This document shows positions 2,305-47,091 of a stretch of 64,000 bases of DNA, piece by piece; within the stretch, counting starts at the first letter, position 1; each line of letters opens with the position of its first letter. The notes under the pieces were generated by a model. It made no database searches and was not told the origin of the DNA. It worked only from the letters and a program-made list of their open reading frames with translations. The position numbers were made by a program, and so were the translations under genes. The DNA is from a virus: IMG/VR virus record IMGVR_UViG_3300045988_115474; one strand, written 5' to 3'.

Positions 2305-2333
2305 TTGACAAAATTACAAGTATCCTGTATTAT
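2305..2333 (+). promoter_or_regulatory. sigma-70/SigA-type promoter (TTGACA-17-TATTAT) containing the conserved GTATCCTGTAT element
   Basis: TTGACA 2305-2310, 17-nt spacer, TATTAT 2328-2333; lies in the 190-bp gap upstream of the 2422 gene. Confidence 0.65.
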
Positions 2334-2377
2334 GTAGCTAAGAAGGACGGTCCGTTAGAGGACTTTTATTTTTACCA

Positions 2378-2400
2378 TTAAGCTATATAACACAGGATAC
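2378..2400 (+). promoter_or_regulatory. conserved phage element, B orientation (TAGCTATATAACACAGGATAC), just upstream of an RBS
   Basis: Reverse complement of the element inside the 2305-2333 promoter; the same 21-mer recurs at about 10 intergenic sites. Confidence 0.5.
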
Positions 2401-2421
2401 ACAAGAAAAGGAGAATCAAAC

Positions 2422-3034: not shown

Positions 3035-3060
3035 CTACATAACTACATAATATAGGATAC
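3035..3060 (+). promoter_or_regulatory. degenerate copy of the conserved element (CTACATAACTACATAATATAGGATAC) upstream of the 3077 gene
   Basis: Shares CTACATAAT..AGGATAC with the B-orientation copies; followed by AAAAGGAGAGAGTGATATG. Confidence 0.35.
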
Positions 3061-3076
3061 AAAAGGAGAGAGTGAT

Positions 3077-3845: not shown

Positions 3846-4085
3846 ATGATTATTGATTCAATTCTTGATCGCCGGAATGGCTATCCTTACAACGCTCACG
3901 AATTTTACAACGATATCAGAGATTATGAGCGTCTAGGTGTTGGTACGCACGGCGAAGATATTTCTATCGCGATGGACTACGGTGATAACCGTGATGTGCA
4001 GCGTGCGCTGTGTCAGTACATCCAGCGCAATGGATACCCGGCAGATATTGAGGACTACATAAGAAGTCAAGTCTGGGTGGTATAA
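3846..4085 (+). CDS. hypothetical protein
   Basis: ORF-track ORF; GAGGTGAAAAGATG RBS. Confidence 0.5.
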   Translation: MIIDSILDRRNGYPYNAHEFYNDIRDYERLGVGTHGEDISIAMDYGDNRDVQRALCQYIQRNGYPADIEDYIRSQVWVV

Positions 4086-7870: not shown

Positions 7871-8128
7871 ATGGATAAAGATAAAAAGATTTTTGAAATT
7901 GATACGGCAATCGGAAAGCTAGTTATTCGTGAAAATTGGGACCCTGACTATCCTGGTGTGAGCGTTTATTTTAAGCGACCAGATGGGGCAGAGATTAACA
8001 TATCTGATACGGAAGTTGATAACGAAACAGGCGATGTAAATGTTTTTGTATGGGATGACCCTAACAACGAGGATTATTCAGAAATGACAACGATTAGCAG
8101 AGAAGAACTTCTTAATGAAGAAGATTGA
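7871..8128 (+). CDS. hypothetical acidic protein; paralog of the 11603-11848 gene
   Basis: ORF-track ORF. FEIDTAIGKLVIRENWDPDYPGVSVYFKRPDGAEINIS aligns with FEIDTPIGKIVAEGFAEPYPEIVIYLKRNDGETINLS of the 11603 gene. Confidence 0.5.
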   Translation: MDKDKKIFEIDTAIGKLVIRENWDPDYPGVSVYFKRPDGAEINISDTEVDNETGDVNVFVWDDPNNEDYSEMTTISREELLNEED

Positions 8129-14299: not shown

Positions 14300-15178
14300 A
14301 TGGGAGCATTAGCACAGGAAGAGTATGAATCGAATTTTATAAGTATTGACGAATATTTAGATGAAGATGTTAATCAAGAAACAACTCAATATTCTAAAGG
14401 AAAAAATTACAACATCACTCGATATTCTGTGGCACGAAATGGTGAAGTTGAACCGATTCGTGACGTAAAAGATATTCAGGCTATTTCTGAATATTTCTAT
14501 AATAAAAAGAAGTATAGAGATTGGTGCTTGTTTAATCTTGGTATTGCCACAGGATTTCGTGCGAGTGACCTTCTTCGATTTAGAGTTGAAGATGTATCGC
14601 ACCTGGTTGATGGAAAACTTGTTGTTAATGAAACAGTCAAGGTTCGCTTTAAGGAGAAAAAGACAGGAAAATATCGCGATGTTGTAATTGGGCAGAACAC
14701 AATGCAGATTATAGCTGAATATATTCGGCTAACGAGGCCGTCGTATCATTCGTGGCTTTTCCCATCTCAGAAAGGAAGTAGCAAAAATTCATTAAGAACG
14801 AATGGGGGTATTTCTTCTTGGAAAGTTGGAGGGGGAAAATCAAATGCAGTGAAAGTTGTAAAATATGAAGCTGATCCAAAGAAGAAAGGTGACCCGATTG
14901 ATGTTGATACGTTTGGACAGATTATGAGAAAAGCTCAAAAAGACTTAGGGCTTTCTTATAAACTTGGGACGCATAGTTGTCGAAAGACTTTTGGTTATCA
15001 ATTCATGATGAATCATAAAGATGACCAGATGGCACTTGCGTGGTTGCAACATAGCCTGAATCACAGTAATCAGGCTATTACGCTTCACTACATTGGATTA
15101 AATGCAGACGTTGATAGAGAATATTATTCTAACATCGACTATGGCGTTGATTGTCATTGTTCAATTGTAGCAATGTGA
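14300..15178 (+). CDS. tyrosine site-specific recombinase (integrase / XerC-D family)
   Basis: Catalytic signature in canonical order and spacing: box I R (GIATGFRASDLLRFR), HxxR (GTHSCRKTFGYQ), a second H (WLQHSLNHSN), and Y (AITLHYIG) about 33 aa after HxxR. AAAAGGAGATATAGTATATG RBS. Confidence 0.7.
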   Translation: MGALAQEEYESNFISIDEYLDEDVNQETTQYSKGKNYNITRYSVARNGEVEPIRDVKDIQAISEYFYNKKKYRDWCLFNLGIATGFRASDLLRFRVEDVSHLVDGKLVVNETVKVRFKEKKTGKYRDVVIGQNTMQIIAEYIRLTRPSYHSWLFPSQKGSSKNSLRTNGGISSWKVGGGKSNAVKVVKYEADPKKKGDPIDVDTFGQIMRKAQKDLGLSYKLGTHSCRKTFGYQFMMNHKDDQMALAWLQHSLNHSNQAITLHYIGLNADVDREYYSNIDYGVDCHCSIVAM

Positions 15179-20888: not shown

Positions 20889-20916
20889 TTGACTAAAACA
20901 AAATGGTGTGTATAAT
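20889..20916 (+). promoter_or_regulatory. sigma-70-type promoter (TTGACT-16-TATAAT)
   Basis: TTGACT 20889-20894 and TATAAT 20911-20916 in the gap upstream of ATG 20959. Confidence 0.5.
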
Positions 20917-20958
20917 ATATCTTGAAAGTTGTTTGTGCGAGCGGAAGGCGGTATTTCG

Positions 20959-21285
20959 ATGAGTGAAAAAAAGGTTTTAGGAGTTATACAGGCCGAGAGT
21001 TTTCTGAAATACATAAGAAAAAAGCGAGTGTGGGTCTGCTTTGCTTACAATGGTGTGGATGTTCACATGGTCTGCAAAAAGATGAACGACATTGGTGTAG
21101 AGACGCATGGGATTGTCAAAGGTATTGGTTTTTTTGGAAACGAAAGTCATGTTGAGTTGCGGAAAGAATGCCATGAAGTAAGGATGGTGGAGCTTAGGCC
21201 GGGCACTAAGGAAAAAGCCTACGAGATGATCTTCGATGATGCCAGTGTTTTTGTGTCAGAGAATCCTGAGTTGTACGGGCACTAA
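20959..21285 (+). CDS. hypothetical protein (109 aa), moron-like, with its own promoter
   Basis: In frame with ORF-track 20929-21285; ATG 20959 after GCGGAAGGCGGTATTTCG. Confidence 0.5.
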   Translation: MSEKKVLGVIQAESFLKYIRKKRVWVCFAYNGVDVHMVCKKMNDIGVETHGIVKGIGFFGNESHVELRKECHEVRMVELRPGTKEKAYEMIFDDASVFVSENPELYGH

Positions 21286-21304: not shown

Positions 21305-21333
21305 TTGACTTCTGTGATGGTATCCTGTATAAT
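21305..21333 (+). promoter_or_regulatory. consensus promoter TTGACT-17-TATAAT containing the conserved GTATCCTGTATAATGTAGCTA element
   Basis: TTGACT 21305-21310, TATAAT 21328-21333; directly upstream of the MazF-like gene. Confidence 0.65.
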
Positions 21334-21376
21334 GTAGCTATGGAACGGAGCTACACCATCATAGAGGAGAAAGACT

Positions 21377-21796
21377 ATGGATAACAATATTGACCCGAAG
21401 GTCGGAGAGGTTTGGTTGGTTGATCTATCCAATGCGACAGGTCATCAGCAGCGCGGTATTCGACCGTTTGTTGTGACAAGCAACAATAAGCGTAACCTCT
21501 TCAGCCCAACAATCAAGGGGAATCCGTTATCTTCAAGAATATACAAGCGTTCTCCGGTTCATGTTCTACTCTCAAAGGAAGACTGTGATTTCCTAGAGGT
21601 TGACAGTATTGTTCTTTGTGAAGAGACTGATACCCTTAATAAAGGACAGTTCATCAAGAGACTTGGTGTCTTGTCGGAGCGTCAAATGAATATGATCGCA
21701 ATGGCAAGATGCAAGGATGAACCGTTTTTGCTCGCAGCATTCCTGAGCGGCGTACAACATACTATGGATTTTCAGAATTTTGCCGCATTTGCTTGA
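21377..21796 (+). CDS. MazF/PemK/Kid-family endoribonuclease-like toxin with a ~25-aa C-terminal extension
   Basis: KVGEVWLVDLSNATGHQQRGIRPFVVTSNNKRN...SIVLCEETDTLNKGQFIKRLGVLSERQMNMIAMA follows the MazF/PemK pattern (GxxxxVDxxPxxGxExxGxRPxVV...TxDKxRL). Strong RBS AGAGGAGAAAGACTATG. Confidence 0.65.
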   Translation: MDNNIDPKVGEVWLVDLSNATGHQQRGIRPFVVTSNNKRNLFSPTIKGNPLSSRIYKRSPVHVLLSKEDCDFLEVDSIVLCEETDTLNKGQFIKRLGVLSERQMNMIAMARCKDEPFLLAAFLSGVQHTMDFQNFAAFA

Positions 21797-21849: not shown

Positions 21850-22776
21850 ATGCTTACTGAAGAAAAAATCAAAGCTTTTGCCGAAAAGTATTCTGATAGA
21901 AGCGGTGAGTTTGTTATATCGACACTTAACCATGTCATGGATTACGAGTCCGAGTGTGGGTATAAGTTGTTTGACTTTACAAAAGATGATTTTGTAAAGA
22001 TGTTTGCCAAATACAATTGGGTGAACTCAAGTCGGTCGTTCAGAAATGTAAAGTCAATAATCACTGGCTACATCAAGAGTGAAAACTGTACAAGCATGTA
22101 CGACTTGGCTGAATTCTCAGAGGATGATGTGAGCTCAGACGACATGTACGAGGACAAGTATTTTGCGTCAGTTGATGAGTTTGTTGACTTCTTAGATAAA
22201 TACGAAAAGGCATATCAGATTCGTATGAACGTGATTGCTGCACTGTACTGGATTGGCCTTACTTCTGAAGAGGTTTCTAATCTGACGATTAACGATGTCG
22301 ATTTTGAATCTCGTACCGTTCTGGACAAAACTGATGTTGACGCAAGATTGATGGAGATCATCAAGCAGTGCTATGAAATGGAACAGTATGATGCCCCAAA
22401 CAAGAAGGGTTATAGAACATTTTGTGTCATGAATGGTGATTACATCCTTCGCAAAACAGAGGATAGAACTGATGCAGACAGTGATTCAAGAATATCTATA
22501 AACACAATTCACAGCTATTTTGTGCGGTTGAATGACATCCTCGAAAAAAGATCCAATTCAAAGACTTTGGATCGAAGACATTTGGTCAGAAATGGTGAGT
22601 ACGTGAAGGTCTACGACTACTGTAAGAACAATCCAGAATTTAATCTTGCAGAACTTAGTTTCGGAAATGGTAAAGACCCCCTTGCGAACATTATCGGAAG
22701 AAAGTGTAGCAAAGTAGCCTATGTTAGTTTCCGGCAAGGATACAAAGGTTGGGTTGAATACTTCCACAAAAATTAA
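21850..22776 (+). CDS. hypothetical protein (308 aa)
   Basis: ORF-track ORF; TAAGAAGGAGTGTGCCACTATG RBS; followed by a strong terminator. Confidence 0.55.
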   Translation: MLTEEKIKAFAEKYSDRSGEFVISTLNHVMDYESECGYKLFDFTKDDFVKMFAKYNWVNSSRSFRNVKSIITGYIKSENCTSMYDLAEFSEDDVSSDDMYEDKYFASVDEFVDFLDKYEKAYQIRMNVIAALYWIGLTSEEVSNLTINDVDFESRTVLDKTDVDARLMEIIKQCYEMEQYDAPNKKGYRTFCVMNGDYILRKTEDRTDADSDSRISINTIHSYFVRLNDILEKRSNSKTLDRRHLVRNGEYVKVYDYCKNNPEFNLAELSFGNGKDPLANIIGRKCSKVAYVSFRQGYKGWVEYFHKN

Positions 22777-22781
22777 AGATA

Positions 22782-22803
22782 GGGGCTTCGGCCCCTTAAT
22801 TTT
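22782..22803 (+). terminator. rho-independent terminator
   Basis: GGGGC-TTCG-GCCCC hairpin followed by TTAATTTT. Confidence 0.75.
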
Positions 22804-22810
22804 AACACGT

Positions 22811-22831
22811 TAGCTATATAACACAGGATAC
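22811..22831 (+). promoter_or_regulatory. conserved element, B orientation (TAGCTATATAACACAGGATAC)
   Basis: Exact 21-mer shared with 2380-2400; 33 nt upstream of ATG 22864. Confidence 0.5.
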
Positions 22832-22863
22832 AGAAAATAGTATTTGAATGGAGAATGATAACA

Positions 22864-23914: not shown

Positions 23915-26125
23915 ATGAGAACTTTGCTTCTTTTCCGTGGAGCACCCGGATGCGGGAAATCCACCTATATTAAAGAGCATGATCTGGAAAAGTATACGCT
24001 TAGTGCCGATACGATTCGCCTTATGTGTCAGGGTGGTCAGGAAACCCCAGCTGGCACAATGGAAATCTCTCCTCAGAACGATGATGTTGTCTGGGATATG
24101 CTCTTTAAACTGTTGGAGGTTCGGATGTCTCACGGTGAATTTACCGTGATTGATGCAACGAATTCCAAGACGGTCGAAATGAATCGTTATAAGAATCTTG
24201 CAAAACAGTATCGTTATCGGATGTATGTTATTAACATGACGGACCTTCCGATCGAGGAATGCAAACGAAGAAACGCTCAGAGAGAATGGCTGAAGCGAGT
24301 TCCTGAAGCGGCTATTGATAAGATGTACGCTCGGTTTGCTACTCAAAAAGTTCCTTCTGGCGTGACAGTTCTTCCTTCTACTACGGATGTGATGTCCGAT
24401 TTGAACTACTGTCCGAATGACTTCAACCAGTGGAAGAAGATTCATGTCATCGGTGATGTTCATGGCTGTTATACTTGTTTAAGTGAATACCTTGGTGAGA
24501 TGAAGGACGACGAACTTTATATCTTCGTTGGTGATTATCTCGATCGTGGCATTGAAAACGTTGAGGTATTCAAGTTCTTGTGTGATGTTGTAAATAACAA
24601 CCGCAAGAATGTGATCCTTTTGGAAGGGAATCACGAGCGTTGGCTGAACAAGTGGGGGCATGATGAACCGGTTCAGAGTGAAGAGTTTGCAAACTACACT
24701 CGTCCGCAGCTCTTTAAAGCCGGTATTGACAAGAACACTGCTCGTAAGATCTATTCCAGAGTTGGCCAATGTGCCTACTTTGAGTATGATGGGAAGCAGT
24801 ATTTCGTGAGCCACGGTGGTTTGAGTTATCTGCCTTATTTTCTTCCTTTTGTATCTGCTGACCAGATGATTAAAGGTGTGGGTCGCTATCCTGATATGCT
24901 AACCGTGGCTGAGTCTTGGGAAAAATCGATGCCGGATAGCTACATTCAGATCTTCGGTCATCGAAATGTGCAGGATGTTCCTATTGATATGGGGCATCGG
25001 TGTTACAACCTCGAAGGAAAAATCGAGTTTGGTGGATATCTCCGTTGCGTGGAACTTGAACACGGTCAGTCAATCAAATGTGTAGAAACAAAGAACGATG
25101 TGTTCCGAAAAGAGGAGCCAAAGACTGAAACTGCCGTTGAAATGAAAACTGAGTTCGATAACGCAGAACTTGTCAGTAAGATGCGTCAAAGCAAATATGT
25201 GTTTGAGAAGCGATTCGGAGATATTTCTTCTTTCAACTTCTCTCGTGAAGCATTTTATAAGAAGCACTGGGATGAGGTTTCTACCAAAGCAAGGGGATTG
25301 TTCATTAACACAAAGACGAATAAGATTGTAGCTCGAAGCTATGATAAGTTCTTTGCGGTCGATGAGCGGAATGAAACGAGAATTGGAAACCTACAGAACA
25401 CTTTGAAGTTCCCGGTGACTGCATATCTGAAGGAAAACGGATTTCTTGGCATTGTCTCATATGATGCAGAACAGGATGGTCTGTTCATTGCAAGTAAATC
25501 CACTCCTGAAGGGCCTTTTGCAGATATGTTCCGAAAGATTCTCATGGATACGACTTCTGATGAAGACCGTAAGAATCTGAAGGAAGTTGCAAAAGAGAAT
25601 GGTTCCATCATTTTTGAGGTGATTGATCCTATAAATGATGCTCATATCATCGAATACAAGAAACCGCACATTGTTTTGCTGGATATTGTTGCGAATGATA
25701 TGAACTTCAGTGTGATGGATTACGATGATCTGAAGCGTGTTGCTGAAAAGTGTCATTTGCAGATTAAGGAGAAGGTTAAGATCTTTGAGTGCTGGAGTGA
25801 ATTCTATCCTTGGTATGAAGAAGTCATGAATGAGAATTATCTGTACCATGGCATCGAGCATATTGAAGGCTTTGTTTTGAGAGATAACAACAATTTTATG
25901 TTTAAGCTGAAGCTTCCTTATTATAAGCACTGGAAGTTCTTGCGTGGTGTTATGCAGAGCGTTCAGAAGCGTGGCTATTATGAAAATACCGCAAAGTTGT
26001 TTACTGCTGAGGATAACCTGTTCTATGGTTGGATGCGTGAGCAACGAGAGAAAGATCAGGAATCTTTCTGCAAGAAGGGTATTATTCAGTTACGGAATGA
26101 ATTCTATGAGAATCGGCACGAATAA
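23915..26125 (+). CDS. polynucleotide kinase / phosphatase / ligase (bacterial Pnkp-like RNA end-healing and sealing enzyme)
   Basis: N-terminus: P-loop kinase FRGAPGCGKST. Middle: calcineurin-like phosphoesterase motifs HVIGDVHGC, GDYLDRG and GNHER. C-terminus: nucleotidyltransferase/ligase-like motifs KENGFLG (motif I, K-x-N-G), EGFVLRD (IV) and FKLKLP (V). RBS AAAAGGGGAGAAAACAATG. Confidence 0.75.
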   Translation: MRTLLLFRGAPGCGKSTYIKEHDLEKYTLSADTIRLMCQGGQETPAGTMEISPQNDDVVWDMLFKLLEVRMSHGEFTVIDATNSKTVEMNRYKNLAKQYRYRMYVINMTDLPIEECKRRNAQREWLKRVPEAAIDKMYARFATQKVPSGVTVLPSTTDVMSDLNYCPNDFNQWKKIHVIGDVHGCYTCLSEYLGEMKDDELYIFVGDYLDRGIENVEVFKFLCDVVNNNRKNVILLEGNHERWLNKWGHDEPVQSEEFANYTRPQLFKAGIDKNTARKIYSRVGQCAYFEYDGKQYFVSHGGLSYLPYFLPFVSADQMIKGVGRYPDMLTVAESWEKSMPDSYIQIFGHRNVQDVPIDMGHRCYNLEGKIEFGGYLRCVELEHGQSIKCVETKNDVFRKEEPKTETAVEMKTEFDNAELVSKMRQSKYVFEKRFGDISSFNFSREAFYKKHWDEVSTKARGLFINTKTNKIVARSYDKFFAVDERNETRIGNLQNTLKFPVTAYLKENGFLGIVSYDAEQDGLFIASKSTPEGPFADMFRKILMDTTSDEDRKNLKEVAKENGSIIFEVIDPINDAHIIEYKKPHIVLLDIVANDMNFSVMDYDDLKRVAEKCHLQIKEKVKIFECWSEFYPWYEEVMNENYLYHGIEHIEGFVLRDNNNFMFKLKLPYYKHWKFLRGVMQSVQKRGYYENTAKLFTAEDNLFYGWMREQREKDQESFCKKGIIQLRNEFYENRHE

Positions 26126-26190
26126 CTAAGATATTTTCTTCCTCCGAAATGCCCTGCGCGGGGCTGACAGCCGGGAAAGACCGGCGATAT

Positions 26191-26266
26191 GGCCCTATGG
26201 CGGAATTAGGCATACGCAACAAGCTCAAACCTTGTAAAATTCTCAGTTCAAATCTGAGTAGGGCTA
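26191..26266 (+). tRNA. tRNA with anticodon CAA in a class I (short variable arm) fold; isotype unclear (Leu-like anticodon without a long arm)
   Basis: Manual fold: acceptor GGCCCTA/TAGGGCT (G1-U72), D arm GCGG..ACGC, anticodon stem ACAAG/CTTGT, loop CTCAAAC, T arm CTCAG-TTCAAAT-CTGAG, A73 and encoded CCA. Confidence 0.5.
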
Positions 26267-26348
26267 CCAACCCATTTGCAGATGGGTAAGTGCTAGAATA
26301 TTGGCAAATTGGAAAGACGGTTGACTGCTGGACAGACAGCTTTGATAT

Positions 26349-26431
26349 GCTACCGTGGTGGAATGGCAGACACCGGAGACTTAAAATCTCCTGTCGGCAA
26401 CGACGTGCCCGTTCAAGTCGGGTCGGTAGCA
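26349..26431 (+). tRNA. tRNA-Leu (anticodon TAA), class II
   Basis: Acceptor GCTACCG/CGGTAGC, anticodon stem GGAGA/TCTCC with loop CTTAAAA, 15-nt variable arm with GTCG/CGAC stem, T arm GCCCG-TTCAAGT-CGGGT, A73. Confidence 0.75.
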
Positions 26432-26438
26432 CTAATAT

Positions 26439-26511
26439 CCGGGTGTAGCTCAGTTGGAAGAGCGCCTGCTTTGGGAGCAGGAGGCCGCAGGATCATGACC
26501 TGTCACTCGGA
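26439..26511 (+). tRNA. tRNA-Pro (anticodon TGG)
   Basis: C1-G72 acceptor (CCGGGTG/CACTCGG), D arm GCTC-AGTTGGAA-GAGC, anticodon stem CCTGC/GCAGG with loop TTTGGGA, T arm GCAGG-ATCATGA-CCTGT (A54/U58 variant), A73 and CCA. Confidence 0.65.
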
Positions 26512-26602
26512 CCAGCCCGAAAGGGTATGTAGAATTTTTCATTCACATTATTCCCAGCCCTCTGGAAACAGAGCAGTGTGGCATAGCAAGCTGGGTAGAT
26601 TA

Positions 26603-26674
26603 CGAGGATTAGCCAAGCGGATAAGGCAGTGGAATTTGACTCCACGACCGCAGGTTCGATTCCTGCACACTCGA
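26603..26674 (+). tRNA. tRNA-Gln-like (anticodon TTG) with two acceptor-stem mismatches
   Basis: D arm GCCAAGCGGATAAGGC, anticodon stem GTGGA/TCCAC with loop ATTTGAC, T arm GCAGG-TTCGATT-CCTGC. Acceptor CGAGGAT/ACACTCG pairs at only 5 of 7 positions. Confidence 0.5.
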
Positions 26675-26681
26675 TTTATAT

Positions 26682-26763
26682 GCGGGTATGGTGTAACTGG
26701 CAGCCACGCGGATTTTAGGTGTCCGTGCCGAAAGGCGTGAGGGATCGTGCCCCTCTACCCGTA
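26682..26763 (+). tRNA. tRNA-Leu (anticodon TAG), class II
   Basis: Acceptor GCGGGTA/TACCCGT, anticodon stem CGGAT/GTCCG with loop TTTAGGT, 13-nt variable arm (GCC-GAAA-GGC), T arm GAGGG-ATCGTGC-CCCTC, A73 and CCA. Confidence 0.7.
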
Positions 26764-26869
26764 CCACGGTCATAGAATGGTTGCGTACCGTTTGTTGATC
26801 TCCTTTGGCCACTATTATTCCCAGCTCGCTCGTAAGAGTGCAGTAGTGCTTTGTAAACTGGGTGATTGT

Positions 26870-26941
26870 GCAGTTATTGTGTAGTTGGTAAGCACGCTTG
26901 CTGATGAAGTAAGAGGACGAGTTCAAAACTCATTGACTGCA
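26870..26941 (+). tRNA. tRNA-like element (possible degenerate tRNA or pseudogene)
   Basis: Acceptor GCAGTTA/TGACTGC pairs fully and the D arm is good (GTGT..GCAC), but the anticodon loop TGATGAA lacks U33, the T stem has a mismatch and the variable region is 3 nt. Confidence 0.3.
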
Positions 26942-27144
26942 AAATATGAAATCAGTTGTTCTAGCTCGTTCGTGGATTGGCCGTACATTGGCGACCGGAA
27001 AGACGTCATACCGGTAAAGGACGTCAAGCCAGACAAGAAGAGAAATAAGGTGTAAGCCGACTAGCTATCGGATAAATACTCTTCGGTTCGCCAGAAAACT
27101 AGAATGTAAAACGAATGGTTGGCTGTTTCTGATTTCATTTATAT

Positions 27145-27217
27145 GCGACTGTAGTTCAATTGGCAGAGCGTCAGATTTCCAATCTGAATGTTGCGGGATC
27201 GTGCCCCGTCAGTCGCT
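27145..27217 (+). tRNA. tRNA-Gly (anticodon TCC)
   Basis: Perfect acceptor GCGACTG/CAGTCGC, D arm GTTC..GAGC, anticodon stem TCAGA/TCTGA with loop TTTCCAA, T arm GCGGG-ATCGTGC-CCCGT, U73 and CCA. Confidence 0.75.
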
Positions 27218-27351
27218 CCACACGCAGCCCCTTACGCTGCACCGGTTGCTCAGAGCCGAAAGAAACCTATATGTTACGACATGGTTGCCAAGAGTGATCA
27301 TATTGGAACGCGACGTAGCTTGGATAGTGAGAATTAAATTCTGAGGTATAC

Positions 27352-27420
27352 TGCTGGATAGCTTAATGGTAAAAGCGCTCGGAAACGCCGAGAGATAAGG
27401 TTCAATTCCTTCACTGGCAT
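27352..27420 (+). tRNA. degenerate tRNA-like element (anticodon loop of only 5 nt)
   Basis: Acceptor TGCTGGA/ACTGGCA (6 of 7 pairs including G-U), D arm GCTT-AATGGTAA-AAGC, T arm TAAGG-TTCAATT-CCTTC; the anticodon arm CTCGG-AAACG-CCGAG is too short to be functional. Confidence 0.25.
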
Positions 27421-27447
27421 CACGCCGATGAAAGTCGGCGTTTGCAT

Positions 27448-27521
27448 GGGATAGTAGCTCAGTTGGTCAGAGCTGGCGGCTCATAACCGCTTGGTCGCGA
27501 GTTCAAATCTTGCCTGTCCCA
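27448..27521 (+). tRNA. tRNA-Met (anticodon CAT), elongator or Ile2-like (G1-C72 paired, so not an initiator)
   Basis: Acceptor GGGATAG/CTGTCCC, D arm GCTC-AGTTGGTCA-GAGC, anticodon stem GGCGG/CCGCT with loop CTCATAA, T arm GCGAG-TTCAAAT-CTTGC, A73 and CCA. Confidence 0.8.
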
Positions 27522-27627
27522 CCAGCCCGATAGGGCATACATAAAATCTGCTAGAACTTTTGTTTTATAAGCGAATTTATAATATGACGTTAATACGTCT
27601 ATTATTTTTCGCTCATTTTTAAAGTTT

Positions 27628-27648
27628 TAGCTATATAATACAGGATAC
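27628..27648 (+). promoter_or_regulatory. conserved element, B orientation (TAGCTATATAATACAGGATAC), immediately upstream of the RBS of the methyltransferase operon
   Basis: 20 of 21 identity with the other copies; followed by AAAAGGAGG. Confidence 0.5.
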
Positions 27649-27723
27649 TAAAAGGAGGAATGTGTAATCTTACGAGTTTTAATTGCCTGTGAAGAATCAC
27701 AGGAAGTTTGTAAAGCATTTCGA

Positions 27724-28368
27724 TTGCTTGGTCATGAAGCGTATTCTTGCGATATTCAACCTCCGTCCGGTGGTCACCCAGAGTGGCATATTTTGGGTAA
27801 CGCACTGGCAGCTCTACAGGGTGGGCAGATAGTCACAATGGACGGCACACAACACTATGTTAAGCAGTGGGATCTATTGATTGCACATCCTCCGTGTACA
27901 TATTTATCAAACGCTGGCGCACGATGGTTATGGGCTGGACACAAATTGAATCAAGAACGGTATCAACGAGGATTGGAAGCTAAGGAATTTTTTATGGCGT
28001 TTTATAACGCACCGATCAAACACATTTGTGTTGAAAATCCAATTCCGAGTGCTGTTTATGAAATGCCAAAACCATCGCAGATGATTCAGCCATATGAATT
28101 TTATGGTAAGGACCACCCATGGACAAAGAAGACCTGTTTATGGCTGAAAGGTCTTCCTAATCTGGTTCCGGTTGAAGCGGTTGAACCGAAGGGTCCGTAT
28201 TGTCCTTGTGGAACTTCGGCCAATAAAGGCAATGTAAGAAATCGTGGCGCAGCCAAACGTGGTGAGGATGCGAAAAATAGAGCCAAGACTTTTCATGGCG
28301 TTGCTCGTGCCTTTGCAGAACAGTTCTCGGCTTACATCGAAAGTGAGGGCGAAAATGCCAGAAAATAA
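27724..28368 (+). CDS. C5-cytosine-methyltransferase-like protein (PC and ENV motifs); N-terminal boundary unresolved, with the reading frame open upstream to 27652 but no canonical start
   Basis: Motif IV-like LIAHPPCTYLSNAG and motif VI-like ICVENPIP. The upstream in-frame RVLIACEESQEVCKAF resembles a motif I strand but lacks FxGxGG. The nearest ATG (27660) is in another frame with 1-nt SD spacing. Confidence 0.45.
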   Translation: MLGHEAYSCDIQPPSGGHPEWHILGNALAALQGGQIVTMDGTQHYVKQWDLLIAHPPCTYLSNAGARWLWAGHKLNQERYQRGLEAKEFFMAFYNAPIKHICVENPIPSAVYEMPKPSQMIQPYEFYGKDHPWTKKTCLWLKGLPNLVPVEAVEPKGPYCPCGTSANKGNVRNRGAAKRGEDAKNRAKTFHGVARAFAEQFSAYIESEGENARK

Positions 28369-28891
28369 GGGTTATCTTACGGCAGACCGTTCATCTAATG
28401 GAGATGAGCGATACACGCCACGGTACGCAGTAACTCCGTTGCTTGAGTTCATCCCCCCATCGAGCCAAGTAGTGATTTGGTGTCCATTTGATAAGGATTG
28501 GTCTGAATTCGCAAAAGTATTTCGAGAAGCGGGATATCAAGTAGAGTGCAGCCACATTGATAATGGGCAAGATTTCTTTACATATGAACCTGAGTGCTGG
28601 GACATTATGATTTCAAATCCGCCGTTTAGTAAGAAAGATAGGGTGCTCCGCAGAGCGTATGAGCTTGGAAAACCATTTGCTTTATTACTTCCGGCAAACA
28701 GTATCCAAGGCAAGACGAGATTTGAAATCTTCAATAACGATGTTCAAATGCTCTGCTTTGACTCAAGAATCGGATTTATGGATGACAAGCATAAGGACAA
28801 GCCCGTCGAGGGAGTGTCATTTGGCAGTGCGTATTTCTGCCGAGACTTCTTACCAAGCAAGTTGGAGTTACGAAAACTTATAAAAGGCTAA
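28355..28891 (+). CDS. DNA N6-adenine methyltransferase-like (phage Dam, PF05869-like)
   Basis: In frame with ORF-track 28244-28891; ATG 28355 after GAGGGCGAAA. Contains ERYTPRYAV (W/Y-TP N-terminal motif) and catalytic NPPFS. Confidence 0.55.
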   Translation: MPENKGYLTADRSSNGDERYTPRYAVTPLLEFIPPSSQVVIWCPFDKDWSEFAKVFREAGYQVECSHIDNGQDFFTYEPECWDIMISNPPFSKKDRVLRRAYELGKPFALLLPANSIQGKTRFEIFNNDVQMLCFDSRIGFMDDKHKDKPVEGVSFGSAYFCRDFLPSKLELRKLIKG

Positions 28892-30877: not shown

Positions 30878-30892
30878 AATTTTTTAGTCTTA

Positions 30893-30911
30893 GATGTGTA
30901 ATACAGGATAC
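30893..30911 (+). promoter_or_regulatory. partial copy of the conserved element (GTGTAATACAGGATAC)
   Basis: Shares TAATACAGGATAC with the B-orientation copies; 37 nt upstream of ATG 30948. Confidence 0.35.
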
Positions 30912-30947
30912 CAATAAAAGAAAAGATTTAGAGAGGAATTTACATAT

Positions 30948-43255: not shown

Positions 43256-45586
43256 GTGGCAGATAAGAAATTTAATGAAAATATGATCCGTTGTTACATC
43301 AGGATAAAACGAGTCTTTTATCCGAAAGATGGGAAGGAGGTGGAGCCCGGCGGCTTCGCCACTTTCTCTGCCGAGGTGGTAAAAGTCAAGCAGGGGAATC
43401 CTGTTATGAGTCGATACAGTGACCTCCGGCTAAAAGGCAACGTTCCTAGCCTTGATATGAATAAAACTTATTCGTTCTGTGGTGAATATGTTCACCATGA
43501 AAAGTTTGGTGATCAGTATAAAATCGTCTATATGAACGAGTTCCAAGAGATTACTGACCCAGAAGAACAGAAAAGCTTTCTCCATTTTATCTTGACAGAA
43601 CATCAGTTCGAGATGCTTTACGAAGCATTTGATAATCCGTATGAGATCATCAAGAACGGTGATATCAAGTCTCTTTGCACTGTTAGTGGAATTACGGAAG
43701 GTCGAGCCCAGAAAATTATCGATGCCTTTGAAAATAACATTGATAATAGCGAAGCATACACGAAGCTGATTGAGTATGGCTTAACTCCTAGTGCTATCGG
43801 AAAACTTGTTCATCAATATCACGGCGCAGACACTCTGGTGAGAAAGATTGAAGAGAACCCTTATGTTTTGATTGACGATGTATATGGTATCGGTTGGAAG
43901 AAGGCTGACGCTCTTGCTTTGAATATGGGATTGAAGCCAAACTCTCAGTTCCGAATTGAAGCTTACGTCATGCATTTTCTTGCTGACCGTGCCGAAGAAG
44001 GCAATTCTATCATCCCGGCAAACCAGACAATCAATAGCTGTATCAAGGAACTTGAATTGGATGAGGGAGACCAAGAGGTCATCAAGAGAGCACTTTTTCA
44101 TCTGCATGATGTACGTGAAACACTTTGGTGGAGCGATGACCGTCAGGAATTTGCTTTAACTAGAGTGTGGAATCTGGAAGATAGTATTGCGAAGGAAATC
44201 AAGCGTCTGGCGGATGCTCCTGTTGAGCCGATTGGTCGAAATATAGATGCAGCAATCAATGAGGCCGAAAATGCGCTTGGCATCGAGTATACCGAAGAGC
44301 AGAGAGATGCCATTAAAAAGGTATGCTCTAGTAACGTCTGTATCCTAACAGGCTACGGAGGAACCGGTAAAAGTACCGTTGTCGCTGGTGTCCTAAAGGT
44401 TCTTCGTGGTAAGTCGTTTGCCCAGACTGCACTCTCTGGTCGTGCTGCTGCTCGTATGCAGGAGATTACTGGTCAGGACGGCAAGACAATTCACCGCCTT
44501 CTTGGTTACGACATTGAGAATGGTGATTTTGCCCATAACAAAAACAATCCTTTAGAAGAGGATATCATCATTCTGGATGAAACCTCTATGGTTGGTGCTA
44601 AATTATTTTACGATTTGATTCAAGCAATCGAAACTGGTAAGCGATTTATCATGATTGGTGATGACGGCCAGCTTGAGAGTATTGGTATGTGCAACATCTT
44701 CAAGGATATGCTCGCCTCCAAAGTTGTTCCGGTTGCTCGCTTGACGAAGATTCACCGTCAGGCTGCTAAGTCAGCGATTGTCACAGAGAGCATCAAGGTT
44801 CGTAATGCCACGCAATTGGTTCCTTACGGTTGGGCTGGTAATGAGATTCGTGGTGAGCTGCGTGATTTGGAGCTAGATATCTACAAGGATGCAGGCGAGT
44901 CGTTTAACCACATCATCAATCAATACCGTACCTTATATAATAAGGTAGGGAATGACAGCGCAAAGATTCAGATTGTACTTCCGCAGAAGCTCCGTGGTAG
45001 TATTTGCACCTACGAGGTGAATAACGCTATTCAGGAAATTGTGAATCCGAGTCGTGGTCAGACCGAAGCGAAGATCTCCATCTATGGTGATGGCAAGGAT
45101 AGAGTGTACACTCTGCGCGAGGGCGATCAGGTCATTATCAACAAGAATAACTATGAACTTCATACATACAATCTCAAGACAAAGAAAAAAGAAGAGAAGT
45201 GTCCGGTGTTTAACGGCAACCGTGGCATCATTCGAAAGATCGAAAATAGTTTTATTCTGGTTGACTTTGACCAATGGGGCACAATCTTCATTCCTCATTA
45301 TTTTGGTGGGAACAACATCTGGGCAACACTTGAACTCGCTTATGCTTTGAGTTGTCATAAACTGCAAGGTAGCGAAGCTCCGTATGTGATTGTCGGCATG
45401 GATAACTCTGCATACTTGATGTTGACGAGAGAATGGCTCTATACGGCCATTACTCGTGCCAAGAAGTATTGTGTGATTTGCGCTGAAACTCATGCACTTG
45501 ACCGAGCGGTAAAGACTTCGAGAGTTCCATACAAGCGGACGTTCCTGAAGGAATTTTTACGGAAAGAATTTTCAGAAAAGCATTGA
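43256..45586 (+). CDS. RecD-like (RecD2/SF1B) ATP-dependent DNA helicase
   Basis: Walker A ILTGYGGTGKST, motif Ia KTIHRLLGY, Walker B IIILDETSMV, motif III IMIGDDGQLESIG, C-terminal SH3-like region; GTG start after TAAGAGGGTTATAAA. Confidence 0.8.
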   Translation: MADKKFNENMIRCYIRIKRVFYPKDGKEVEPGGFATFSAEVVKVKQGNPVMSRYSDLRLKGNVPSLDMNKTYSFCGEYVHHEKFGDQYKIVYMNEFQEITDPEEQKSFLHFILTEHQFEMLYEAFDNPYEIIKNGDIKSLCTVSGITEGRAQKIIDAFENNIDNSEAYTKLIEYGLTPSAIGKLVHQYHGADTLVRKIEENPYVLIDDVYGIGWKKADALALNMGLKPNSQFRIEAYVMHFLADRAEEGNSIIPANQTINSCIKELELDEGDQEVIKRALFHLHDVRETLWWSDDRQEFALTRVWNLEDSIAKEIKRLADAPVEPIGRNIDAAINEAENALGIEYTEEQRDAIKKVCSSNVCILTGYGGTGKSTVVAGVLKVLRGKSFAQTALSGRAAARMQEITGQDGKTIHRLLGYDIENGDFAHNKNNPLEEDIIILDETSMVGAKLFYDLIQAIETGKRFIMIGDDGQLESIGMCNIFKDMLASKVVPVARLTKIHRQAAKSAIVTESIKVRNATQLVPYGWAGNEIRGELRDLELDIYKDAGESFNHIINQYRTLYNKVGNDSAKIQIVLPQKLRGSICTYEVNNAIQEIVNPSRGQTEAKISIYGDGKDRVYTLREGDQVIINKNNYELHTYNLKTKKKEEKCPVFNGNRGIIRKIENSFILVDFDQWGTIFIPHYFGGNNIWATLELAYALSCHKLQGSEAPYVIVGMDNSAYLMLTREWLYTAITRAKKYCVICAETHALDRAVKTSRVPYKRTFLKEFLRKEFSEKH

Positions 45587-45611
45587 CAATTATATTGGTA
45601 TCCTGTATAAT
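45583..45611 (+). promoter_or_regulatory. consensus promoter TTGACA-17-TATAAT with embedded GTATCCTGTATAATATAGCTA element
   Basis: TTGACA 45583-45588 and TATAAT 45606-45611; overlaps the last codons of the RecD-like gene. Confidence 0.65.
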
Positions 45612-45657
45612 ATAGCTATAAAAAGTCTCCATCTCGGAGGCTTAAAATTCTCTCTTT

Positions 45658-45677
45658 AACTACATAATACAGGATAC
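45658..45677 (+). promoter_or_regulatory. conserved element, B orientation (AACTACATAATACAGGATAC)
   Basis: Second of three element copies within 180 bp. Confidence 0.45.
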
Positions 45678-45680
45678 GAG

Positions 45681-45717
45681 AAAGAAATGGCTTGCTCGTA
45701 ATGGCAAGCCTTTCTTT
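45681..45717 (+). terminator. rho-independent (possibly bidirectional) terminator
   Basis: AAAGAAA-T-GGCTTGC [TCGTAATG] GCAAGCC-TTTCTTT: a ~14-bp stem flanked by an A-tract and a T-tract. Confidence 0.7.
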
Positions 45718-45726
45718 ATTCATTAT

Positions 45727-45746
45727 AACTATATAACACAGGATGC
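45727..45746 (+). promoter_or_regulatory. conserved element, B orientation variant (AACTATATAACACAGGATGC), directly upstream of the ligase RBS
   Basis: Followed by GCAAGGAGGCTTTATG. Confidence 0.45.
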
Positions 45747-45759
45747 GCAAGGAGGCTTT

Positions 45760-47091
45760 ATGACAGATAAAGAGCTTATAGGTAAGCTCGATGCGATGGT
45801 AAAGGCATTGCAGAGCACGAAGAAAAAGACAGATAAGACCCGCATTTTGCTGGATGAACGAAAGGATTTTGGGGCTGAAGCTGACGAGTTGATGGCTTTC
45901 TTCCGATTCTTGCTTGATCCGGCAATCGTAACTGGACTGTCGGATGCAAAAATCAATAAACAGGTGAGTGCCAAACCTGAAATTGATATCCAGTATCTCA
46001 GTTGTGGATACCTTTATATTATGGGCGCTGGTCACAACACTGGTTCCGACACATCCATCGCAACAATCCAGAATTATTTACATAAAAATCCTGAGCACGA
46101 AGAGTTTCTAAAGCGGCTGTTTACCAAGAATTTGCCGATTGGTGTGGAAGCTGCTACCATCAATAAGGTGTATGGCGAGGAAATTATTCCTGTCTGGGAG
46201 GTTCAGCAGGGATATCCGATTGATAAGGTGAAGTTGAAACCCGGCATCTGGTTCAGTCTGAGCCAGAAGATGAACGGCAATAGGGGCACAATGTATCGTG
46301 GAGATTTAATTTCTCGTCAAGCGCAGAAGTTTGAAGGACTCGATCATATTAAGAATGATCTGCTCGCTCTATATGATGGAGGTGTGGAGAGGCGAGATTC
46401 TTTGGTGTTTGATGGCGAACTCATTTATAAGAACCCTGAAGGAATGTCGGACGGAGAGGCGTTTCGTTTCGGCACTGGCCTACTTAATTCTGACAGCAAG
46501 AACAAGACTGGAATTAAATTTGTGATTTTTGATGTAATTCCTGTTGTAGAGTTCGACTGTGGAAAGTGTGCTGTCCAGTATCAAACCCGCCGGAAATGGC
46601 TAAATTGTCTTCGTGCGGAGATTGCTCGTAAGAATCTTGAAAACATCGAAATTGTTCCAATGGTATACGAAGGTACTGACCAGAGTGTGATTCCGAAGTG
46701 GCTTGATTATGCTGTGGCACATGATTGGGAGGGTTTGATGTTGAACACCAATGTTCCTTATCAGCGTAAGCGTCATATCGGCTGTCTCAAAATTAAGCGT
46801 TTTTACACTGTTGACCTGCGAATCACCGCGATTGAAGAGGGTCAGAATCGTCTGGCTGGTACGATGGGCGCTCTGGTTGTGGACTACAAGGGCAACGAGC
46901 TTCGTGTCGGCTCTGGTTTTGATGATGCTACGAGAGCTGCTGTGTGGGCAAATCCTGATAATTACATCGGCAAGATCGTTGAATGTAAGTACAAAGAGGT
47001 CAGCTGTGATAAGAAAACTGGTGCGGAGTCCCTGCAGTTCCCGACCTTTGTGCGGTTCCGAAACGACAAGAACGAAGTGAGCTACGGCTAA
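45760..47091 (+). CDS. ATP-dependent DNA ligase
   Basis: Nucleotidyltransferase motifs I KMNGNRG (K-x-N-G variant), III LVFDGELIY, IV DWEGLMLN, V LKIKR, followed by an OB-like C-terminus. Confidence 0.8.
   Translation: MTDKELIGKLDAMVKALQSTKKKTDKTRILLDERKDFGAEADELMAFFRFLLDPAIVTGLSDAKINKQVSAKPEIDIQYLSCGYLYIMGAGHNTGSDTSIATIQNYLHKNPEHEEFLKRLFTKNLPIGVEAATINKVYGEEIIPVWEVQQGYPIDKVKLKPGIWFSLSQKMNGNRGTMYRGDLISRQAQKFEGLDHIKNDLLALYDGGVERRDSLVFDGELIYKNPEGMSDGEAFRFGTGLLNSDSKNKTGIKFVIFDVIPVVEFDCGKCAVQYQTRRKWLNCLRAEIARKNLENIEIVPMVYEGTDQSVIPKWLDYAVAHDWEGLMLNTNVPYQRKRHIGCLKIKRFYTVDLRITAIEEGQNRLAGTMGALVVDYKGNELRVGSGFDDATRAAVWANPDNYIGKIVECKYKEVSCDKKTGAESLQFPTFVRFRNDKNEVSYG

Follow-up and report, generated by a model that had tools for sequence, protein, structure and literature searches.

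Repeated asymmetric boxes at a helicase-ligase gene junction of an SPbeta-like phage as likely operators of an MrpR/SroF-type repressor

The master repressor of the Bacillus phage SPbeta, MrpR (YopR, SroF), has a tyrosine-recombinase fold and no recombinase activity, and chromatin affinity purification with sequencing (ChAP-seq) yielded ten peaks for it, all of them at copies of the SPBRE element that lie in promoter regions between genes, among them that of its own operon (yopM) (PMC10516654). SroF of phage phi3T is a monomer that nearly encircles the DNA; it reads 24 base pairs (bp) of a 26-bp asymmetric box present at multiple scattered sites, and a DNA-mimicking antirepressor removes it from this box (bioRxiv 10.1101/2025.11.27.690993). 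The present report deals with a stretch of 64,000 nucleotides (nt) of the IMG/VR virus record IMGVR_UViG_3300045988_115474 (hereafter the window; one strand, 5' to 3'), in which an asymmetric box of about 21-23 nt recurs between the genes and is, judging from sequence comparison, most likely the binding site of an SPbeta-type, MrpR/SroF-like repressor encoded in the same window. Three copies of this box are located at the junction (45583-45762, hereafter the hub) between the genes for a RecD2-like helicase and an ATP-dependent DNA ligase, namely an inverted copy within a promoter (box A) and two copies in gene orientation on either side of an intrinsic terminator (B1 and B2). With a moderate degree of confidence, the hub is read here as a triple-operator early promoter beside an operon-end terminator, i.e., as a repressor-guarded junction of two early operons and not as a riboswitch-like attenuator.

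The SPBRE copies that were located in the SPbeta sequence all face the downstream gene, several of them adjoin a ribosome-binding site (RBS) (yopM, yopV, yonX #2), and two copies at a distance of 64 bp enclose the yonX promoter (TTGATT-17-TATAAT). The window resembles SPbeta and phi3T in its candidate repressor of integrase fold, in the use of one long asymmetric box (~15-26 bp; SPBRE in SPbeta, Phi3TRE in phi3T) of which some ten copies are dispersed between the genes of the early arm, in a box at the promoter of the repressor operon itself, and in boxes that adjoin RBSs or promoters. With SPbeta it further has in common the replication gene order, the prophage state and the tandem arrangement of boxes (64 bp apart at yonX, 69 bp between B1 and B2), B2 standing beside the ligase RBS as the SPBRE copies do at yopM, yopV and yonX #2. 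Regarding the differences, the box sequence is unrelated (TAGCTA-N6-ACAGGATAC here versus the A-tract-rich AAAAATATGTATATAA in SPbeta) and the proteins are ~16% identical; inverted boxes double as the -10 of consensus promoters here, whereas the SPbeta copies stand beside promoters; the boxes here lie 0-7 nt past T-runs or terminators, which is not so in SPbeta; and the repressor gene is co-transcribed with that of a MazF-like toxin, in contrast to the six-gene sro operon.

Two unrelated phage systems offer parallels that are functional only. Gp71 of mycobacteriophage L5 reportedly acts at so-called 'stoperators'. The likeness lies in a monomeric repressor, an asymmetric site with many copies of one orientation in short intergenic gaps and one in an early promoter, and a proposed block of the elongating polymerase, a roadblock role that is also inferred for the boxes described here; gp71 is, however, an unrelated helix-turn-helix protein with a 13-bp site, and no homology is proposed. 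The C1 repressor of phage P1 acts at asymmetric 17-bp operators scattered over a large temperate phage genome. Its single operator type is dispersed in both orientations and often overlaps promoters, as the box does here, whereas fold and operator length (17 bp) differ. A publication on R. gnavus phages in which the work on the SPbeta repressor is cited was set aside; it describes unrelated phages of 33-38 kilobases (kb).

The repeated box and its candidate reader

The box, TAGCTA-N6-ACAGGATAC, is non-palindromic and is present in ten copies, the consensus of which, after alignment in one orientation, is TTAGCTAYATAAYACAGGATAC (Table 1). With up to three mismatches allowed, the pattern was matched nine times in the window versus 0.18 times expected, and none of 100 shuffles reached nine matches; the tenth copy is more diverged. 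All ten are located in gaps between tightly packed genes of the + strand. Three are inverted (2319-2341, 21319-21341 and 45598-45619) and make up the spacer, -10 and start region of promoters of the form TTGAC(A/T)-17-TAnnnT, by which inverted boxes occupy three of the four best + strand promoters of the window. The other seven (B copies) are oriented with the genes, each with a T-rich run or the U-tract of a terminator 0-7 nt before it and a start codon 12-36 nt after it; four of the about five convincing intergenic terminators of the + strand have a B box within 5-30 nt downstream. The fourth near-consensus promoter (TTGACT-16-TATAAT, 20889-20916) carries no box; it is located 400 bp upstream of the repressor operon, drives the open reading frame (ORF) 20929-21285 and may be expressed independently of the repressor.

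Relatives were 80 IMG/VR contigs (80-150 kb) that carry a homologue of the ligase and comprise 60 distinct sequences. In their B boxes the flanks TAGCTA and ACAGGATAC are fixed and the centre drifts (to CGTGAC, AGTAAC, TATGAC or AGTTAC); the promoter copies always keep the TAnnnT hexamer. Fixed flanks around a tolerant centre point to a protein-binding box, the centre of which doubles as the -10 hexamer within promoters. Asymmetry and a length of 21-23 nt fit a monomeric reader such as SroF, and if the reader clamps the DNA as a monomer, by analogy with SPbeta and phi3T, the box should function in either orientation. A role of the B boxes as sigmaA promoters was ruled out, since they have no -35 hexamer at 16-18 nt and their centre is not kept as TAnnnT. 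The idea of a MazF cleavage site was dropped as well, UACAU being present in just two of the seven B boxes.

The candidate reader is the 308-amino-acid product of ORF 21850-22776, which comes second after the box-containing promoter at 21305 and lies 23 kb upstream of the hub. As judged from profiles, modelled fold and transitive homology, it is a distant homologue of SPbeta MrpR/YopR/SroF. Its score against the Pfam domain MrpR_N_CB was 20.7 bits (below the cut-off of 27), that of the related protein P0066 was 27.7 bits, and weak precomputed matches to MrpR_C_cat exist for relatives; the protein also matches a PHROG family annotated as integrase. The AlphaFold model (predicted local distance difference test score, pLDDT, 62) is confident only for residues 1-177. 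A Foldseek search of the PDB (9rd5_H, E = 7.9e-4) placed the phi3T SroF-DNA complex, the SroF-Sar complex, MrpR and three YopR structures in the top six positions, ahead of XerA and Cre. Among 1.8 billion proteins searched by profile, 68 matched, and BLASTP links several of these to SPbeta YopR (P0146, P0129 and P0091; E = 5e-21, 5e-9 and 3e-5, respectively). Regarding the catalytic residues of tyrosine recombinases, the first Arg is replaced (GLTSEE versus GLRISE in Tn1549 Int); the C-terminal Tyr is retained, as in MrpR, and so is the His-x-x-Arg motif (H244, R247), and the Lys and His/Trp-III positions are not reliably alignable. The box in the gene's own promoter (21305-21341) suggests autoregulation. 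A single variant of the repressor is carried by 445 contigs, and phage records from human faeces are among the nearest matches. Relatives of the gene were found on contigs of 375-784 kb, a size that marks them as integrated prophages.

The MazF/PemK-like toxin gene (21377-21796) is co-transcribed with the MrpR-like gene, and the same pairing is found in relatives and in the distant phage L103. The arbitrium decision of SPbeta and phi3T is connected with MazEF of the host (PMC10769878); the window showed no arbitrium genes. Relatives (L082, 12090-12566; L087, 12936-14225; L103, 508-1620) have HNH endonuclease and TnpB/Cas12f-like insertions close to the gene for the repressor, which marks this region as a mobile-gene hotspot.

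Layout and conservation of the hub

A sequence-only reading of the window had reported a perfect TTGACA-17-TATAAT promoter at 45583-45611 that overlaps the 3' end of the helicase gene. The promoter is present, with a match to the consensus at 12 of 12 positions and no second such match in the 64-kb window, and the helicase stop codon (TGA, 45584-45586) falls inside its -35 hexamer. A TG stands directly against the -10 hexamer and, as there is no gap, does not constitute a canonical TGn extended -10. The two B elements that flank the terminator, the second adjoining the ligase RBS, were also found where they had been described, with exact pattern matches at 45658-45675 (AACTACATAATACAGGAT) and 45727-45744 (AACTATATAACACAGGAT); the third, inverted copy within the promoter had been overlooked. 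As for the terminator, described before as having a 14-bp stem, it is present, with a stem (AAAGAAA-U-GGCUUGC / GCAAGCC-UUUCUUU, -20.3 kcal/mol) of 7+7 pairs and one bulged U. Between box A and B1 lies a hairpin with the conserved pyrimidine tract UUAAAAUUCUCUCUUU on its 3' side.

Table 1. Features of the hub, of the other box-containing loci and of the candidate repressor gene (positions in the window)
Feature	Position	Strand	Remarks
RecD2-like helicase gene	43256..45586	+	last gene of the upstream replication (polymerase-helicase) operon
Promoter TTGACA-17-TATAAT, sigmaA/sigma70-type	45583..45611	+	predicted; -35 = 45583-45588, -10 = 45606-45611
Box A, inverted copy GTATCCTGTATAATATAGCTAT	45598..45619	-	spans promoter spacer, -10 hexamer and predicted start (~A45618)
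Hairpin, 8 bp, -11.1 kcal/mol	45623..45643	+	near 5' end of the promoter transcript; pyrimidine-rich variable loop
Box B1 (TTAACTACATAATACAGGATACG)	45656..45678	+	~+39 to +61 from the predicted start
Intrinsic terminator (predicted)	45678..45720	+	A-tract, GC core GGCUUGC/GCAAGCC, U-tract UUUCUUUAUU
Box B2 (ATAACTATATAACACAGGATGCG)	45725..45747	+	starts 5 nt past the U-tract, ends 2 nt before the ligase RBS
Ligase RBS AAGGAGG and ATG start	45749..45762	+	
ATP-dependent DNA ligase gene	45760..47091	+	
Sister cassette	2305..2401	+	box promoter 2305-2341, terminator hairpin and U-run 2347-2373, B box 2379-2401; before gene 2422
B box	3039..3061	+	before gene 3077
Box-containing promoter TTGACT-17-TATAAT	21305..21341	+	ahead of the MazF-like gene (21377-21796) and the repressor gene
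MrpR/YopR/SroF-like integrase-fold protein gene	21850..22776	+	308 amino acids; candidate box reader (profile, fold, transitive homology)
B box	22810..22832	+	straight 3' of terminator 22781-22803, which ends the repressor operon
B box	27627..27649	+	after the tRNA array and terminator 27586-27609
B box, diverged	30890..30912	+	before the Sak4/YorG-like gene

The complete hub layout is kept in all 80 relatives (60 distinct sequences). The hexamers TTGACA and TATAAT, their 17-nt spacing, the ACAGGAT cores, the GC core of the terminator and the RBS do not vary among the 60 distinct sequences, and the mean major-allele frequency is 0.945 in the intergenic region versus 0.90 and 0.815 at the third positions of codons in the two neighbouring genes. 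The hairpin at 45623-45643 is 99.6% paired, with compensatory changes from CG to UA in five sequences and from UG to UA in six, and the terminator helix is 91.6% paired. The hairpin loop varies freely, which argues against a specific protein-binding loop. Most relatives (L001-L080, ~3960-3985) read TTATTAGCTATAACTATATAAC on the 5' side of B2, an additional partial TAGCTA flank that points to a past local duplication or slippage at the box.

The sister cassette at 2305 is kept in 15 relatives, with compensatory changes in its hairpin; the inner box spacing is 36-37 nt both there and at the hub, and the spacer sequences differ. Megablast of the hub region against GenBank phages yielded no match, and a ligase search of species-representative genomes found no relative. 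The nearest DnaE, that of Clostridium phage Amboise (47% identity), is too distant for a comparison of non-coding sequence.

Proposed mechanism and rival explanations

With the repeated elements read as repressor boxes, the hub appears primarily as a repressor-controlled junction at the level of DNA. In a lysogen, a repressor monomer on box A would cover about -21 to +1 and block open-complex formation, and monomers on B1 (~+39) and B2 (~+108) would, together with the terminator, stop polymerases that arrive from the upstream operon or escape from the promoter; the ligase gene and the next ~18 kb would stay silent. No further box or strong promoter was seen in the ~18 kb past the ligase start. 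After induction the promoter would fire from about A45618 and the 5' hairpin would cap the RNA; depending on the efficiency of the predicted terminator, part of the transcripts would end at about 45718-45722, giving a by-product of ~100 nt, and the remainder would read into the ligase gene. The sequence-only reading had proposed such a short promoter-to-terminator transcript, and the layout does place the terminator ~100 nt from the predicted start; the regulatory role that had been attached to the transcript is unsupported.

Several observations weigh against this reading. It leaves unaccounted for why a promoter stands upstream of the terminator at both the hub and 2305, how, in the lytic phase, transcription reaches the genes that follow promoter-less B boxes, and why co-variation keeps boxes A and B1 complementary and does not extend to B2. 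Three boxes are inverted here, whereas the located SPbeta copies all face the gene. Compared directly, the candidate repressor and YopR show only weak similarity (~16% identity, hhalign E = 0.13), for which reason hhalign of the repressor family against YopR was discarded as stand-alone evidence, and membership in the family rests on profile, fold and transitive evidence together; the structure model is poor in its C-terminal half (pLDDT 62, TM-score ~0.26). In the distant relative L103, which has a clear MrpR_N_CB repressor, k-mer and repeat tools detected no repeated box in 21 kb.

A strong promoter followed by a terminator ahead of a gene, conserved at two loci (45583 and 2305), is also the layout of an attenuator or antitermination site at which a factor or an alternative RNA fold gates passage into the ligase gene, as the sequence-only reading had suggested. 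In phage lambda, the strong promoter PR' is followed by the nearby terminator tR' and a long operon, so that a short, abundant RNA (6S RNA) is the default product and Q acts by antitermination. This precedent resembles the hub in the proximity of promoter and terminator ahead of a long operon and in a protein-binding element inside the promoter; it differs in that neither a Q-like gene nor a pause signal was identified, that the box recurs far from promoters and that the leaders at the hub and at 2305 are dissimilar, with just the box in common. The conserved promoter-proximal hairpin and the apparent need of the genes behind B boxes for terminator read-through would fit such a site, but no antiterminator gene was recognised among the ~40 ORFs scanned, Rfam searches at gathering and permissive thresholds (E<=10) returned only tRNAs and noise, and no conserved pairing that competes with the GC core of the terminator was found among the relatives. 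Fold prediction gave an energy below that of shuffles (z = -2.9), and no antiterminator fold was found. A pairing of 45622-45630 with the ligase RBS, present in a single-sequence fold, was rejected, the same segment forming the local hairpin that is kept by compensatory changes; variants on the RBS side (GGAGGT) are uninformative on it. The sole mini-ORF of the leader (ATGGCTTGCTCGTAA, four codons, 45688-45702) is located inside the terminator hairpin, has lost its ATG in seven relatives (L026, L029, L034, L043, L044, L048 and L072) and is probably meaningless. With the hairpin loop variable as well, control by attenuation or antitermination finds no support in these results and is considered improbable. 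A free-standing regulatory RNA of ~100 nt (45618 to ~45720) with a function in trans, the other role envisaged before, is very unlikely: such an RNA is expected from the placement of promoter and terminator, purifying selection acts on the region and the fold energy is low (the same z = -2.9), yet all conserved parts are accounted for by the DNA boxes, the hairpin and the terminator, the Rfam searches gave it no independent support, and the cassette at 2305 would yield an RNA of just ~30 nt without common sequence. No target complementarity was found for it, no systematic search having been made.

Elements of ~21 nt that are conserved, of fixed orientation, directly past terminators and 12-36 nt before start codons have the classic layout of promoters for a phage polymerase or sigma factor (of the T7 class or in the style of SPbeta YonO), with the promoter-embedded box as a switch, and this would account for the expression of promoter-less genes. 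Such a system seems improbable here, given that no RNA polymerase or sigma factor gene was found among ~40 ORFs scanned in the window, that B1 would fire into the terminator and the inverted copies against all genes, and that a homologous repressor-box system already accounts for the pattern. The complementarity of inverted boxes raises a further possibility, compatible with their role as operators, in which the pairs A-B1 and 2320-2341 with 2379-2401 would form a rod of ~90 nt in RNA that reads through from upstream, and RNase III-type processing or stabilising of this RNA would uncouple the operons. The read-through RNAs of the two loci fold to -26.4 kcal/mol (z = -5.1) and -33.4 kcal/mol (z = -6.9), RNAalifold selects the A-B1 stem, and the 36-37-nt spacing is common to both loci. 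In the 60 relatives A-B1 is 98% paired, with 22 double-change cells at two positions (none of 500 shuffles was as high), and on a tree built from the flanks, changes fell on the same branch in 4 of ~10 and 4 of 6-9 cases versus ~0.8 and ~0.4 expected, with none for B2. Opposite copies of one box are, however, complementary by construction, the stem has a fixed mismatch at its centre, the two co-varying pairs are mismatched in 7 of 63 and 6 of 63 sequences, solitary boxes have no partner, and the co-changes possibly stem from short recombination tracts or gene conversion. The A-B1 co-variation may reflect an RNA structure with a role in processing or stabilisation, conversion of one inverted copy by the other or short recombination tracts, and the rod itself is regarded as quite improbable.

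The repressor-guarded junction remains the preferred reading. An extended form of it, in which the hub and its sister at 2305 act as a three-layer, repressor-conditional insulator of a kind undescribed for SPbeta-type phages, is speculative and rather unlikely. The box embedded in the promoter would block initiation, the boxes 0-7 nt past the U-tracts would serve as stoperator-like roadblocks that make leaky terminators absolute only with the repressor, and the inverted boxes in read-through RNA would pair into the ~90-nt rod, the processing of which would uncouple the operons. Should this be true, loss of the repressor would open the whole series of closed junctions and leave a single long unit transcribed by read-through. 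Roadblock-assisted termination is of low probability, as a polymerase stalled ~14 bp before the box would stand at the first U of the tract, a geometry that is not obviously favourable.

Phage background and implications

The window is best explained as the early arm of an SPbeta-like temperate phage of ~130 kb, and a low-GC, Gram-positive-type host is inferred from the AGGAGG ribosome sites and a GC content of 41%. The gene order matches that of SPbeta yorF-yorL, with YorF-family, Sak4/YorG-like, YorH, YorI-like helicase, RecJ/YorK-like and DnaE/YorL-like genes. A second tyrosine-recombinase gene (14300-15178; Phage_integrase match, E = 1e-20) is located in the early arm; SPbeta likewise has an integrase-like gene, yopP, near its repressor gene. 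A gene for a fused polynucleotide kinase-phosphatase/RNA ligase (23915-26125) is followed by seven tRNA genes (26191-27521), and the whole (23915-27521) has the appearance of a module for tRNA repair and supply. DNA methyltransferase families are matched by each of two adjacent, overlapping ORFs (27724-28368 and 28355-28891), and some relatives have a single DNA_methylase gene of 460 amino acids nearby; the methyltransferase gene of the window may be split or carry a frameshift. At 250-290, between a terminator (203-234) and an RBS/ATG (~319), three direct repeats of (T/A)ATGCAA(A/G) may be the site of another regulator. A gene-junction motif, TGATAAAAG...TTTTAGGAG(G), links a stop codon to the next RBS at 8126, 9044, 11570, 15860, 18505, 19983, 23428 and 56630.

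Studies of monomeric 'clamp' repressors with an integrase fold have so far been confined to the Bacillus phages SPbeta and phi3T. The window supplies a concrete pair of putative operator (TAGCTA-N6-ACAGGATAC) and candidate repressor (ORF 21850-22776) from a widespread lineage of uncultured phages, with a new box sequence and a somewhat different deployment of the box, inside the -10 region of promoters and directly behind terminators. A repressor-guarded junction would explain the dense cluster of signals between the helicase and ligase genes without invoking a new RNA regulator, and the pair suggests that the MrpR/SroF-type system predates the arbitrium phages and extends beyond them.

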